Shown one piece after another: positions 34,903-47,499 of a stretch of DNA of 64,000 bases. Made by a program: the position numbers and the translations under genes. The notes beneath the pieces were generated by a model. It searched no databases, was not told where the DNA came from, and saw only the letters and a program-made list of their open reading frames with translations. How positions within the stretch are numbered: the first letter of the stretch is position 1; every line of letters starts with the position of its first letter. Source of the DNA: Carcharhinus longimanus (taxonomy: Eukaryota); contig JASCQW010000027.1 in the NCBI GenBank assembly GCA_030264375.1, positions 93,546,858-93,610,857 of the forward strand, in the 5' to 3' direction.

Positions 34903-35094
<192 letters not shown>

Positions 35095-39092: not shown

Positions 39093-41466
39093 AACATTGG
39101 CCATAATTTTATAGCCTGCCATGAAGGGGATGGGAGGTAAAATAGGCTGTGCTAAGCACCGATCAGTCTCCATGCGCCAATAGTGATTTTAGCAGCTGCA
39201 GGGGAGGCAATGGGTGGCTCACTCACCCATGGGCTGTTTGAAACTTTCTCCAGCCATGGCCAGGCTTTTACCCATGGCAGGGGAGCCCGATGTTCAGCCT
39301 GCCACGTGAAACATGGTGGCCATGCAAGGAATGGCTTGTCTTATTTCGGCTTTCCTCCAACCAACACCACACATTTAGTTCTCAGACTGTTGAAGTTCCA
39401 GCAGTGACCAATGGCCCTGAAGATGCTGTTGGATCAAGAGAGCTGCCAGCTATTTGATTGGCTGGCAGTCCAGAGTTAGGATTTCTTCCCCAAAAGGGGC
39501 AGATGACCTGACTCAAGCCAATTAATACAAAGAACAAAAACAGCCCGGGAAACAGGCCCTTCGGCCCAACGAGCCCGCGCCGCCATCTCAACACCACCAG
39601 TCCNNNNNNNNNNNNNNNNNNNNNNNNNNNNNNNNNNNNNNNNNNNNNNNNNNNNNNNNNNNNNNNNNNNNNNNNNNNNNNNNNNNNNNNNNNNNNNNNN
39701 NNNCTTTTAAAGTTATCTATCAGTGAGAGAATTTGTTTGGCTGCAATTAAAGATTAATACAATTTTAAAAATGATACTTAGACTAAAACAGAACAGCCTC
39801 ACTTTCTGTGTGAAGGAACTTGTCACTGCTCAATGCATGTGCATGATCAGCCACATAGTAAGGTGTTACTTTCACGCTGTTTACAGAAAAGATGTGAAAC
39901 TTGGGCAACAACTTCCTGATTTTCATGCTTAACTCTGCACGTGTCTTCACCTGAAGTTGCTCTGCAATCTCTGCAGGAAGAGTGGGCTGTTATATTTTCA
40001 ATAAATTCCAGACCAACATTACTGTGACAGTGTGCCCAGTAAAAGAACTGACTTCAGTTACTCTTGCAATATTTTGTTAGCTATGGCAATTTCAAGCAGT
40101 CGCAATTCTGAAAATAATTTCAGTTAGTCACTTTAAAATCTCACTTTACTTAAATAAGGCTTTATTTCTAATGAAAGTGTTTTAAGTTAAAGAAACTACA
40201 GGTGATATATGCTCAAAACATGGTTTAATCACACGACTGAAAAATCCTACAGGAAGCCGTGTTTCTTTACAGAATAGCAGCAATGTGGCGTAAATACTTA
40301 TTTTTGAGAGTAAAATTAATCATTTCAGAAGGGAAGGTCCTTTTCGCAGAAGCCACAAATACTCTGAGCAAGCGCTCTCCTGGGAGATGAATTCAGAAGC
40401 CAAAAACTTGTTTTCTTTCATGTGACTGTAATATTCCTACTTGGCTGAATTTGAATGCAGCTCGCCAATGCCTCAAGGCAAATGGAGAACAAACTGGTCT
40501 TTAGATACAACCTTGATTTGTCAATACAAAAATGGAAAACGCTCAGAACATTCAGCAGGGTGGGTGGCATCATGTTGAGAACAGCCAAATATAAGCCACA
40601 CTGCTATCATTGAGATCTTTCATGTGCAGGCTTGGTATGTAATCTAGTGATACAAGACCAGCAAACATTCTCCTCTCATTTAATCACCCCCACCACTTTA
40701 TCCTCTCCTGCAGTGGCTGCCAATTCTGAATAATTGCAGTTTAAAACTTACCCTTTCATATGCACTTTCAAAATTTAAATGAATACAAAAATGACCATTG
40801 GCACCCCATAGCAGAGTTGCGCATTGGTAAGGAACTGAACAACTCCCATCTGCACAGATTTGATTGCAGTCCCCAAATCAGAGCGTAAACAAGGTATACC
40901 ATTCCTGAGCTTTTTCTTGTACATATCAAGTTTCAGTGAGGTTGCACCGATCTGTGACGAATGCAACACATTGAAGGGCACCACCCCTATCTGAAAACCA
41001 GATCAAGTATCAGTGCTTGCTGAATTGGAACTTATTTAGGGTTAGTCCTCAACTATCCAAAATTGAAATGAAGGAACACACAATTTGCATCTGGTTTTGC
41101 AGACATCTGCCTTGCTGCAGGGTGACTGGAATTCCCCAGAGTGCTTCACATAATGCACAGGATGCTGTTGTGTTATTGCACAAGGGAGAGGGAATATGTA
41201 CTCTACACCCTAAGTTAATGAGATTCTTTTCTTCGTCTTACTGGCCAGGTCAGAAGTAGACATTTCATTTCCAGTGCATCCAGAACAAAACTAGAACTGT
41301 TCCAATTTTAAGAAAGCCAGATTTGGATCAACTGTTAGGGAGTTCATTCCAAACCGCTAGAAATAGTTAAATTTAAACTCATGGAGAATCAAATTGAAGG
41401 TTAAAACAATATCCCAATGACCTGCCTGTTGTACAATAGCAGCATTTCATGGATGAGCCTACACTT

Positions 41467-42016: not shown

Positions 42017-43099
42017 ACAATCAAATCTCCTCTCAGCTTCTCTTAACCACAATTGCTACCGTAAGTGGTTTATTTTGGCATGTCAAGCTAACAGCCAGAT
42101 CAAAAGATACATTTTAGAAGCACAATATTAAATGAAGCTCTCCAATCAAAACTAAATATATAAATTATTAAAAAGAAAATCACAACCCATGCTTTTTTAA
42201 AAAAATGTGATTAAACAGTCTATTCAGATTTAATCTAAATCAACAACCCCAGTGTAAATCTACGGTAGTATTCCTGGGAAAACTGAAGAGGTTCAGTCTC
42301 CCAAAAAAAAGTACATATACAGCTTTGTATTTTCAGCCAGTCACTGATCAATGCAAGACTATAATGGAACTGCAGTATCTCTCATCTGCTAAAGTACATT
42401 CATTAGGCTATTTAGCTATCAAAGCCTATTTACATCATTTTAAACATGAGAAAACATAACCGAAGGAAAAATATTCAGTCCATCCTCTCAGTACTCTAAT
42501 TGTCCCATTATATCATGGATGCCCCTTACTTTTATTCACCAATATTCATCACTATTCTTTGAGTAACGCTCTTCCTAGTAATCCAATTTAAATGGACTTT
42601 TCACTGACAAATTTATGACCCCTGGCTTTACTTTCGTGACTGAAACTTACTGGTTGCAAAAAAAGGAGTTGCTTAAGACAGGTGGATATTCCACCAGAGT
42701 AACCAGACTAACAGGCTTCCCTCTACTGTGATATACAAACAAAACTTACTGATGTGCATACTGATGCATTTTTAAGATTTACAATGATTTCAAGTAAAGA
42801 TGTATAAATGGCACACAGCCGATTGTTCATCAGAAACAGGTTTCCACCATTTTGGCCCTGCCCGAGTCTCTTCAGTCTTGCGATGCTGCTTGCACTGGAG
42901 GGTTCCCTCATCCACACGCGTTCACCACTACAATTTTTTAATGTTACTTCACTTGCGATATGAAGTGGAAACATCTGTGTGGTGCTGCACCACTCCTCAT
43001 TTCTGTGTCCACCAAGGTTTTAAGTGCTGATCACAACAGCCCAAACAGACATCTCCGTCCTTCCTAATGGAGGATTTCCCTTTATTGCACAATTAGACT

Positions 43100-46000
43100 T
43101 TAACTTATGTGAACCCTGGCATGCCGCTTGAGGTTGGTCATAGAAGCACACGAGTAGTTACACTGGTCACACTGGAAAGTTTCTTTCTTTATATGGTTCC
43201 TCATATGCCGTTTGAGGTTACCCAGTTGGGCAGAGACGTAGTTACACTGTGAACATTTATATGGCCTTCTGTAGTTGTGTATGTTCATGTGTCTTATGAG
43301 GTTGCTCTGGTACTGTGAGGCAAAATTGCACAATTTGCAAGAGAAGACTTTTTGTTCTTTGCTAAGGCTATTCTCAGTCTCCCCTTCCTGCTTTATCTCC
43401 ATCCTTTCCATGTGATTCTGTTTGTGGCGTTTAAAGGTTGCCTTGCTGTCAGATACAAACTTGCAGTGGTTACATTGGTAAGATTCCTTTCCTGCATGTG
43501 TTCGAAGGTGCCTTTTGACATTGACTAACTGGGTGGAAGCATAATTACACTGGCTGCATTTGAAGGGCTTTTCTCCTTTGTGGCTCCTGATGTGTCGATT
43601 AAGATTCCCCAATTCTACAGTTTCATAATAGCAATGTGAACATTTATACTGCCTCTTCCTTTTCAAATTCCTTGAAACGCAGCCGGGCAAAGAACTGCTT
43701 GCCTCACAGGAGGGAGGCTGATCATCATTTTCAAAGTTATCTTCCTGCGCAGACAGACCATTCTCTGACTCTTTTTTAATGCTAATGCTGTCTGATTGCA
43801 CCAGTTCAGCTCCTTCAGAAGAGGGGGAATCCAAATGGCTGGATGCTTGTTTCATGTGTGTTTGCAAATGCCTCTTCAAGTTTGCAAAATTAATGGATGC
43901 ATAGTTGCACTTGTTGCATTTAAATGGTCTTACACCCAAATGAACCTGGATGTGGCGCTTGAAGTTGCCAGATTGCTTGGTGGTATAGTTGCAGTGGGAG
44001 CACTGGTACTCACTTTTGCTGTTGCTGTGTGTTTTCATGTGTGCTTTCATGTGCATTATGAAGTGGTTGGGATACTGGGTGACAAAACTGCACAGTTTAC
44101 AAGAGAAGATGTTTTCACTAGTTTGATGGACAATTGTCTCTTTGGAAGATGGCTGCGGGTCACTAGACGCAGAGCCTGAATTGTGTGTTTTCATGTGTCC
44201 CATTAAATCGTTTAGGTGTTCTGTGATGAAGTCACACAGATTGCAAGAAAAACGCTTCTGAGCATTTTCATTCTCTCTTTCTTCCTTGCACTGTGGCTCT
44301 CCGCCATTGTCCACGCGATTCTGCAAGTGCTCTTTCCAACTGGTTATGCTGCAAGTAGAATAGGTGCATTGGCCACACTGGTAAGACTTTTTACCCGTGC
44401 GAAGCTGTTGGGTCCCCATATTTTTCCTGGCCACCTCTGCATGTGTCTTCATGTGCCTTGCAAGAATACTTGGGTACTGGGCTTTAAAATTACACAACAT
44501 ACAACAATAGGGTTTCTCGGATTTCACCGAACTGCTGCCCTCCCCCAAGGATGTCTTTTCTGTGTGAATTTGCTTGTGTCTCTTCAAGTTCTCCATGCGG
44601 CTACAAGTGTAATTACACTCATCACACCTGAAGGGTTTTTCCCCAGTGTGGATCAATATGTGCCGTTTAAGGTTACCTTGCTGTACTGTTGCATATTCAC
44701 AGTAGTGACACTTATAGGGCTTCTCTGAGTTGTGTGTCTTCATATGCCTCATGAGGTGGCCTGGGTACTCTGAGATAAAGTTACACAGCTTGCAGGAATA
44801 AAGTTCCTGAGCCTTTTCATTCCCATTCTCATCGTCTTCCAACAACAATTCTTTCTTGACATGACTCTCCTTGTGCTCCTTTAATTCCACTGCACTGCTG
44901 CAGGTATAATAACAAATGCCACATTTGAACGACTTGGGCCGAGTATGAGTTAATATGTGACGTTTGAGATTTCCTGACTGATGAGATGCATATTCGCACT
45001 GATCACATTTGAAAGGCTTTTCTCCTAGATGAATCCGGATGTGCCGTTGCAGATTCCCTGATAAAGAAGATACGTAATTACAGTATGTGCATTTGTAAGG
45101 CTTCTTTTCTCCACTTCCAGTTTTCTCAGTGTGGTCTTGCTGGTGCTGCTTTAGGTCAGCCATGCTGTCACAAACATAGTCACACAAGCGACACTTAAGG
45201 GATTTTTTGTGTGTGTGGGTCTGTCTGTGCCTCTTAAGATGCCCTGACTGATAAGTTGCATAGTCGCATTGGTCACATTTGAAGGGTTTCTCTCCCAGGT
45301 GAATTCGAGTGTGCCTTTGGAGGTTCCCCAACAGCAATGACGTATAATCGCAATATAAACATTTGTAAGGCTTCTCCTCCCCGATTTTTGTTGCAACTTG
45401 CTCGGCAGTATCGGTTGAGGCTTCATCGGTGACATTTTGTTTATCTTGCAGGTGCTTTTCCTTATCTCGGTGAAGCTTTTCCTTTATGTGAATCTCTTTA
45501 TGCTGTTTTAAGTCTAATAAGTTACTACAGCTGTAGCCACAGCTCCGGCATTTGAACATCTTTTCACGTGTATGAGTGAGCGAATGACGCTTAAGATTCC
45601 CCATCTGACAGGAAGAATAATCACATTTGTTGCACTTGAAAGGTTTCTCCCCCAAATGAATACGGGTGTGTCGTTGGAGATTTCCGAGCAATGGTGATGC
45701 ATAGCTACAATACAAACATTTATATGGCTTCCCCTCACTATTTGCTTTCATCGTGGTTGCATCCAATTCATTATTTTGCAATAAACTTTTATCGTCTTTG
45801 TGGCTTTGTTTGTGCCGCATCAAGTCCGCCATACTGGCCCCTGTATAGTCACACTGGCTACACTTGAAAGACTTTTTCCTTGTGTGTATCAGCATATGAC
45901 GCTTGAGATTCCCCATCTGACCAGACGCATAGTCACACTGGTTACACGTGAACGACTTTTTCTGGGTATGCGTGAGCTTATGGCGCTTCAAGTTTCCTGA

Positions 46001-46749
46001 CTGGCCAGTTGCATAGTAGCACTGGTCACACTTAAAGGGCTTTTCTCCAAGGTGAATTCGGATGTGGCGCTGTAGATTCCCCATCAGTGATGAGGTATAG
46101 CTGCAATATGAGCAATGGTAAAGCTTCTTTTCTTCACTTCCTCCGGTGGACATGTCACAATCTGCCCGTGAGGGGAAGAGCTTCTTTGAAGCAGCACTAC
46201 CTTTTCGTTCTGACAAAGGTTTATTTTTCATGTGCTTCCTCTTGTGCCGTGTTAGGGCTATCATATGATCACAGGTAAAATCACAGTAGCTGCACCTGAT
46301 GGCCTTCTTCTGGGTTTGGACAAGGGCTTCTAATTGGTCAGATGTATTGTCACACGTCAAAGGCTTCTCTCCTTCATGGCTCAGAAAATGATGCTTATCC
46401 ACGTGATTAGTTTTAGAATTGCTGTCAGAACATTTATTCAGTTTGTCATCCAGTGCTTCGGTTTTGTTCAGACTGTCACAACGCATAGAAGTTTCCTTAA
46501 AACCACAGTTGTCTTCCAACATACTGCCTACACTGCCTTCCATGCTGTTCTGACTGACAAAGCCATTCGTCTGCTGAGGAAAACTGTCACAACAGTCTGT
46601 CAGCATTTTAAGTGGCTTTGGGGTAGATTTTACTTGGTTACCCACCATCGCAATATCATTTTGCTGCTCCTTTCCAGTTTTGCGTCGTTTGCAGCTTGGC
46701 GAAAACTCTCCATTGTCATTTGCATGAATAAGGTCCAAGCTATCAGAAC
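43100..46749 (-). CDS. Large terminal exon of a multi-C2H2 zinc-finger protein (28 intact and 1 degenerate finger; ZNF513-like finger cassettes)
   Basis: 3.6 kb stop-free ORF with CxxC-x12-HxxxH fingers and (T/L)GEKPF linkers. The listed start is TTG, 11 nt downstream of a ttttatttgcag| acceptor (intron ends 46750, phase 1, frame open), so this is a spliced exon. First in-exon ATG is at 46648. AATAAA at 43081-43086 follows the stop. Confidence 0.93.
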
Positions 46750-47499
46750 CTGCAAATAAAAATCAACACAATCAGTTTATTGGGCAGTGCCAGTTGGCAA
46801 GAAACACCAACATAAATAAAGTCTCATTCTACCAACAGAGCTACAGTACCAGCAGTTGTGATGGGCAACAATCGCGATGCAGGATATATTAAATTCAGTA
46901 TTTTACTAACATGGTACATACTTTTCTGCATTTTCATTTCCAATGCCTTTTACAAAAAGCATTGGGTTTAACAAAAACCAAACATAAACTGCAATAATTA
47001 GATGGGGGTGATATAAACTGCAATTCAGTGAAAGTCAAAAAGAAGCCACAAAAAAAAACAGAAAATCTATTCTCCACAGAATAAATGTTGCATTTATTAT
47101 GTATCAAGGTGTGTTAGATCTAAGGTCCTCTGTGACAGAAAACTAAAAGACTTTCATTTTTCTTTCAGGTTTGAGCTTAACCCAGGCAGATAGGATGAAA
47201 ATCTCTGAAGTACATTACGGTAAAAATGACCCACTGGTTATGAAGTGCTTTCAGATGCCCTAAAGGCAATAAAGCAGAATGACAAGGTTTTCTTCTTTGC
47301 TGACTAATAAAAAAAGAAATTGGATAGTCTGCAGTCTTCTTAAAATGCAAATTTTGCCTGTAAAACAACAGCACTCAGAAACTTAAAAGATGGAATTATA
47401 AAGTGCCAGCGGGGAGCGAGGGGCATGTGGATAATATTTCTGCAATAGTAAAGAGAGAGGAATGCCTATAAGGGAACACGATGGGGTGAGGGGAGAAAG

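Follow-up and report, generated by a model that had tools for sequence, protein, structure and literature searches.

The closest described counterpart of the element considered here is the zinc-finger gene ZNF513 of bony vertebrates and the chimaera (gar XP_006626159, Callorhinchus A0A4W3K3N2). The present analysis concerns a stretch of 64,000 nucleotides of Carcharhinus longimanus (contig JASCQW010000027.1, positions 93,546,858 to 93,610,857), called the window below, and a giant finger exon on its minus strand at 43100..46749, which is most likely a remodelled, lineage-specific and conserved variant of ZNF513 and not a new gene, paralogue or protein class. Among non-elasmobranch ZNF513 records of at least 460 amino acids, 39 of 42 have four fingers in the middle exon and five in the last (the 4+5 arrangement), two have 8 fingers, and 16 are present in a sturgeon record whose exons are repeated; the chimaera record likewise holds 4+5 fingers (9). 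Exons 3 and 4 are homologous in all records, including a CxxC...CxxC leader, which indicates that ZNF513 arose by exon duplication. As to function, the accessible text of PMC10522663 reports promoter binding by human ZNF513 in chromatin immunoprecipitation, links to retinal and gingival disease appear in the corresponding portions of PMC10522663 and PMC5793174, and the latter also describes an effect of znf513 knockdown on photoreceptors in zebrafish. The shark gene has the same first two exons, phase-1 junctions and SNX17 neighbour as these counterparts, the same last exon (61-72% identical) and related finger helices; it differs in a middle exon of 28-30 fingers that lacks the CxxC...CxxC leader and ends in a stop.

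Two other systems offer partial parallels. In the available part of PMC11602157, RRKQxxP is described as the N-terminal motif for interaction with the nucleosome remodelling and deacetylase (NuRD) complex, and FOG-1, SALL1/4, BCL11A, ZNF296 and ZNF827 carry it, as here, at the N-terminus of a multi-finger protein; the present case differs from these proteins in that binding is predicted by a model. In the Drosophila lola gene, as here, common 5' exons precede finger exons that arose by duplication and can each terminate a protein; the alternative last exons of lola carry different zinc fingers (PMC10551640). It differs in possessing a BTB domain and in having no homology, and the shark gene has two live finger exons and one dead one, not 20, their alternative use being suggested by gene models.

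The giant finger exon and its relatives

We assign the giant exon with high confidence to this shark's single ZNF513 gene, as its middle finger exon. In a search with the whole protein, the clusters of Stegostoma (80% identical) and Hemitrygon (67%) stood far ahead of the next match (26%), and cluster look-ups added Chiloscyllium, Hypanus and Scyliorhinus torazame; these elasmobranch orthologues are 67-91% identical to the giant exon, with the Scyliorhinus model P0307 at 91%. The Stegostoma (P0002) and Scyliorhinus (P0307) models start with ZNF513 exons 1 and 2 and then enter the giant exon, and in the ray models (Hemitrygon, Hypanus) exon 1 is joined directly to it. The signatures of the two N-terminal exons, MPRRKQ..PQPVK and ..GQ(D/E)LEF..GFEKDS, are joined to the finger exon in the models of four relatives, and records that bear the name ZNF513 in sturgeon, gar, lungfish and chimaera have these two exons as well. 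At the other end, the Chiloscyllium (P0122) and Scyliorhinus (P0307) models run on into the ZNF513 last exon.

Orthologous RefSeq models carry automatic names that hide the giant exon as ZNF513: XP_048386199 ('ZNF729-like'), XP_043531163 ('ZNF208-like'), XP_059839068 ('ZNF836-like') and the 'uncharacterized' XP_072911882 and XP_072356681. The name 'znf513a' is given to the last exon alone (XP_078068723), and the present reading corrects this annotation. Among 1.84 billion representatives, only a ray protein matched the first 264 residues of the exon over their full length; no giant relative was found outside elasmobranchs, and no further match had the ZNF513 N-terminus. A literature search found no paper on a giant shark ZNF513, and ZNF513 goes unmentioned in the whale shark genome paper.

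The exon lies in an open frame at 46762-43100 (minus strand). It begins in phase 1 at base 46749, directly behind the splice acceptor TTTATTTGCAG (46750..46760, minus strand), comprises 3,650 bases and 1,215 residues, in which 28 intact fingers of the CX2CX12HX3H type and a single degenerate one are encoded, and ends in a TAA stop at 43102-43100, two residues past the last finger; it is a single exon without a start codon. The 11 letters of the acceptor are common to the giant exon, the ZNF513 last exon and a decayed copy of exon 3 (see below). The finger-free leader (46376..46747, minus strand) shows weak homology to the beginning of exon 3 in the chimaera (E about 1e-4, with 10 sequences compared), ends in a degenerate finger and lacks the CxxC...CxxC motif of other ZNF513 middle exons. 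Four 'A' cassettes (fingers 2-5, 6-8, 9-11 and 12-14; 44861..46120, minus strand), with opening helices LxGNLQR / QxG(N/H)LKR, are mutually 72-74% alike in DNA, and they are followed by the 'B' region (43109..44800, minus strand) with fingers 15-28 and a degenerate finger at about 44383-44315. The fingers at 46441-46376 and 44383-44315 (minus strand), degenerate here, are intact in Stegostoma, Chiloscyllium and the rays, and sharks have an intact finger 1, the ray version of which is degenerate; this distribution suggests slow loss at the edges of the array.

As to ancestry, for 20 of the 28 fingers a ZNF513 finger outscored all 4,751 control fingers, which were drawn from 221 proteins. In a cassette tree of 44 rows and 79 columns, all eight cassettes paired with their ray counterparts, the four A cassettes formed one group (support 98/95), and the B cassettes 15-17, 20-22 and 26-28 grouped with the ZNF513 exon 3/4 clusters (99/98). 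The contact residues (-1, 2, 3, 6) are identical in 22 of 28 fingers across four sharks and two rays, and contact positions are 87-96% identical versus 49-83% for spacers. Since the contact residues are kept while the spacers vary, purifying selection, and not an arms-race pattern, is indicated. Nor were the traits of tandem clusters of the KRAB, SCAN or BTB type found, as no such domain is present, a single copy was seen among the best 150 candidates scored and the contact residues are conserved.

The history suggested by these data would be a duplication of exon 3, after which one copy decayed and the other grew by duplication of cassettes of three to four fingers. The middle exon probably expanded about sevenfold from four fingers in this way before sharks and rays split. 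From one chimaera species, and from protein models only, we infer that the growth took place after the chimaera had branched off. In the chimaera itself, fingers 3-4 of exon 3 share helices with fingers 3-4 of the last exon (P0305, P0256), which suggests conversion between exons 3 and 4. The chimaera record of 311 amino acids jumps between exon 3 and the last exon and may be a chimeric assembly.

Several points weigh against assigning the exon to ZNF513 in this way. All of the junction evidence consists of automatic gene models of other species, not of reads. The linkers of the two fusion models are unconvincing: that of Chiloscyllium is an intron read through, and that of Scyliorhinus is a run of 167 unrelated residues. 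Since the linkers look artificial, these models show linkage and order and not a real protein of 33-35 fingers. The control proteins had been cleared of ZNF513-type motifs beforehand, which favoured the result, and even so eight of the 28 fingers failed to beat them. In the tree, three of the eight cassettes fall inside the supported ZNF513 group and five, the A cassettes and cassette 23-25, fall outside it. A long interspersed nuclear element (LINE) ORF1 origin of the Scyliorhinus linker, at first suspected, was dropped, as Pfam gave nothing above the cut-off.

An earlier sequence-only reading of the window had described an intact exon of about 1215 codons with 28 intact fingers, and the frame, the acceptor and the residue and finger counts agree with this. 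The three peptides that it quoted as ZNF513 signatures are all present in the translation, and its failure to see a KRAB, SCAN or BTB domain is matched by Pfam, in which only zinc-finger families were above the cut-off for the giant-exon protein. Its proposal of ZNF513 ancestry is upheld by the finger scores and the models of relatives, and that of an expansion by the comparison of 28 fingers with four in the middle exon elsewhere. The whole-protein search likewise returned, as the closest sequences, elasmobranch orthologues starting with ZNF513 exons. The finger-level phylogeny, which it had offered as a check, gave a divided answer: clustering with ZNF513 holds for three B cassettes and is not supported for the A cassettes and 23-25. 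Also, its label 'chondrichthyan-specific' is right in so far as the expansion belongs to cartilaginous fish, and too wide in that the chimaera has 9 fingers, so that sharks and rays only are concerned.

Placement of the gene in the assembly

The other exons of the gene were located by searches of the shark's own genome in which the best 150 of more than 3,200 candidates were scored; within this scope, exon 1, exon 2 and the last exon each turned up once. Exon 1 (C27:41582755-41582794, plus strand, in a CpG-rich kb) and exon 2 (C27:41,598,220-348, plus strand) are located on the same scaffold as the giant exon, on the opposite strand and 52 Mb away. The last exon, with five fingers ending in the helix HWDNYKR, is intact on another scaffold (C139:9,997,304). 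The junctions are all compatible: phase 1 holds at the ends of exons 1 and 2 and equally at the starts of the giant and last exons. Identity to the Scyliorhinus model P0307 is 39/42 for the piece with exons 1-2, 1101/1215 for the giant exon and 227/252 for the last exon, a level of about 91% to a single catshark model in each of the three. The simplest reading is that the pieces belong to a single ZNF513 gene scattered by scaffolding.

The surroundings of exons 1 and 2 are those of ZNF513 in part. Beyond exon 2, at a distance of about 110 kb and on the other strand, comes SNX17, and the human SNX17 and ZNF513 genes are presumably oriented tail-to-tail as well. A decayed, chimaera-like copy of exon 3, with stops, frameshifts and lost fingers and with an intact acceptor, is found 18 kb after exon 2 (C27:41616213-41616710, plus strand). 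When sturgeon exon 3 was used as the query, no intact short exon 3 appeared among the best 150 of 3,331 candidates, and the close matches were the last and giant exons. In the accessible portion of a human gene list, SNX17, ZNF513 and PPM1G are consecutive (PMC2570409). Two points tell against the single-gene reading here: no PP2C exon, as expected of PPM1G, was seen near exons 1-2 among 25 matches, and the own-genome searches were restricted to the best-scoring candidates.

The adjacency of the giant exon to EIPR1 is, in turn, very probably a scaffolding error. The frame with the last coding exon of EIPR1 (34903..35094, plus strand) counts as a neighbour only in the assembled sequence, and its stop (about 35094) is 8.0 kb from the end of the giant exon. 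Between the two lies a scaffold join of 100 N (39604..39703), the giant exon being located on its own 38.6-kb scaffold piece. The sequence-only reading had placed the two genes tail-to-tail. The strands and the distance of 8.0 kb are correct in the assembly, and a true neighbourhood is not supported; because the join separates the two, 'convergent with EIPR1' is valid for the assembly only. The assembly consists of 68,774 contigs, and the SNX17 locus alone contains 23 joins of 100 N in 280 kb. End overlaps were seen at six of 38 such joins and not at 39604-39703; since they are rare, the missing overlap is weak evidence. No informative end overlap placed the 38.6-kb piece in any gap at the SNX17 locus, with many piece ends lying in one shared repeat. 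Many scaffold pieces share the same terminal repeat of 70-75 nt in all three regions examined, and this repeat is a likely cause of misjoins in the assembly. Gene neighbours across 100-N joins are unreliable in this assembly and should be treated with caution.

The sequence-only reading had taken the exon for a separate paralogue or old ohnologue of ZNF513 beside EIPR1. In the assembly it does sit 8 kb away from EIPR1, with exons 1-2 at a distance of 52 Mb, and a duplication of exon 3 is documented by the decayed copy near SNX17. Nevertheless, a separate gene is highly improbable: exon 2 and the last exon each have a single copy among the candidates scored, and no ZNF513 upstream exons were present in the window or the next 40 kb, that is, over about 57 kb upstream of the giant exon. 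The models of other species join the giant exon to both ends of ZNF513, whose exons 1-2 lie beside SNX17 in this genome, the three pieces are equally divergent from P0307, and the join of 100 N lies between the exon and EIPR1. A true breakage of the gene by rearrangement in this species, with the pieces surviving as relics or being trans-spliced, would account for their distribution over three places on two scaffolds, but with all pieces intact and about 91% identical to the catshark model, and with the fragmentation of the assembly and of the SNX17 locus given above, it is barely credible.

Three further features were recorded outside the gene. A RING-finger exon, which we take to resemble RNF19, lies upstream of ZNF513 exon 1 in divergent orientation (C27:41536566, minus strand). 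A dense cluster of dozens of tandem C2H2 finger open reading frames occupies C81:81.7-85.6 Mb. At C191:369712 (minus strand), an open frame of 2,580 codons contains a finger match 52% identical to sturgeon ZNF513 fingers.

The last exon and a probable second product

The canonical 4+5 arrangement in one reading frame was not found in this shark, where 28 fingers are followed by a stop. Exons 1-2 would be spliced to the giant exon, as the models of other species have it, with polyadenylation at AATAAA (43081..43086, minus strand), a candidate for the proximal poly(A) signal, which the sequence places 14 nt beyond the stop. The product of exons 1-2 and the giant exon would comprise 1,272 amino acids, versus 1,270 in the Stegostoma model. 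The last exon is left stranded by this stop. It is 89-97% identical to that of three other sharks in BLASTP (97% in Mustelus), 81% to that of Chiloscyllium and 78% to that of the chimaera, and, being intact and conserved, it is likely still translated.

The balance of evidence leans towards two protein products from the gene. The stretch after the stop (42750..43099, minus strand, 350 nt) ends in ATG CAC ATC A (42759-42750) and is followed by a splice donor, GTAAGT (42744..42749, minus strand), that would join the last exon in frame. Joined in this way, donor and last exon give Met-His-Ile-Asn-Ser-Asp-Val and a protein of 256 amino acids, which are the start and the length of Mustelus XP_078068723 (znf513a). 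The ATG-His-Ile-A|GT site, 350 nt behind the stop, is the sole one in the 401 kb examined, with a chance expectation of 0.45 in all 401 kb and 0.001 per kb, and its ATG is the only one of eight in the 350-nt stretch that is in frame with the last exon. This unique site ties the tail of the giant exon to the last exon in a transcript.

Synthesis of the short protein through this donor, with the Met-His-Ile start and 256 amino acids, is the route ranked first, and it is possible while falling short of probable. Ranked second, and held more tentatively, is a splice that would skip from exon 2 to the last exon and yield 309 amino acids; a model of this kind exists in a teleost (P0244). Each route faces objections. 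The Mustelus junction was deduced from three residues, phase and length, with the DNA unseen. An exon junction 350 nt behind a stop normally triggers nonsense-mediated decay, which speaks against the first route from a full-length mRNA, and no CpG island was found near the end of the giant exon. As for skipping, no shark model of exons 1, 2 and last was present among 83 matches.

Two other accounts of the same splice sites should be considered. One full-length protein of about 1,525 amino acids and 33 fingers would result if a donor just before the stop were used and the stop were read only upon intron retention. A phase-1 GT is indeed present in the last codons (TAA|GTTAAA at 43104), the join would read His-Ile-Asn-Ser-Asp-Val, two models fuse the exons, and the conserved last exon would be explained without a second product. 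However, a rough scoring matrix puts the donor at 43104 in 61st place among 91 GT sites of phase 1, the models of Stegostoma and of the two rays stop no more than 2-9 residues past the last finger, the fusion models have no clean join, and only the downstream donor supplies the Met with which the Mustelus model begins; a protein of 33 fingers is improbable. Alternatively, splicing from the donor in the 3' untranslated region could be a poison event, in which read-through leads to nonsense-mediated decay and sets the level of the giant product, the short protein being made by exon skipping only. On this account, too, the exon belongs to ZNF513. The distance of 350 nt from stop to junction fits it, as do the phase 1 of all exons, the teleost skip model P0244 and three upstream ATGs, out of frame, whose reading stays open as far as the donor, not counting another that is just 10 nt ahead of the Met-His-Ile start; the lack of a shark skip model among the 83 matches speaks against it, and it is rather unlikely. 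Taken as a whole, the best explanation is probably that of an expanded ZNF513 exon 3, misplaced beside EIPR1, with two products likely.

Predicted properties and meaning of the giant product

An effector in place of the missing domain is probably provided by exon 1, which lies outside the window and reads MPRRKQSHP, a full match to RRKQxxP. Starts of the MPRRKQ type are also present in bony-fish, amphibian and bird ZNF513 records. According to the available part of a preprint, 19 of 23 human proteins with RRKQxxP have NuRD evidence; neither the preprint nor PMC11602157 names ZNF513 in the accessible main text, and a literature search found no paper linking ZNF513 to NuRD. When human RBBP4 was modelled with residues 1-30 of the Stegostoma protein, the score was 0.82 against 0.15 for the best control, the runs shared at least 54% of contacts, and the predicted local distance difference test (pLDDT) value of the partner was at least 54; among microbial pairs, 51 of 78 solved and 2 of 108 mismatched ones attained this mark, and among eukaryotic pairs 71 of 105 and 2 of 126 did. 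The N-terminal motif would likely dock on RBBP4 of the NuRD complex. Against this, the pass may be a memory of the solved RBBP4-FOG1/BCL11A/ZNF827 complexes, and a human stand-in and a peptide were used; since complexes of this kind are solved, what the model shows is a resemblance, not binding itself. The 22 N-terminal residues, used as a query against PDB sequences, gave no match.

Asn at +3 and Arg at +6 occur in 17 of the 28 giant fingers and in 7 of 9 canonical ZNF513 fingers. In the recognition code, this pair favours GAN triplets, and the giant cassettes would read purine-rich repeats of the GAN type. No ZNF513 DNA motif was found among the papers listed in a literature search. Put together with the splice sites, the nine-finger regulator may have been split within one gene into a NuRD-recruiting giant of 28-30 fingers and a five-finger short form without the NuRD motif, the choice being made by poly(A) addition versus splicing in 350 nt, possibly with an mRNA of two open reading frames; this proposal is offered tentatively and is doubtful as it stands.

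Growth in finger number is mostly seen in fast-changing, clustered zinc-finger genes, and here it has affected a single-copy, deeply conserved factor tied to retinal development. About 24 fingers were gained in one exon, and their contact residues then remained nearly unchanged across sharks and rays. The conserved contacts point to a fixed, elasmobranch-specific function, and the gene offers a clean case for how extra cassettes change the targets of a zinc-finger regulator.

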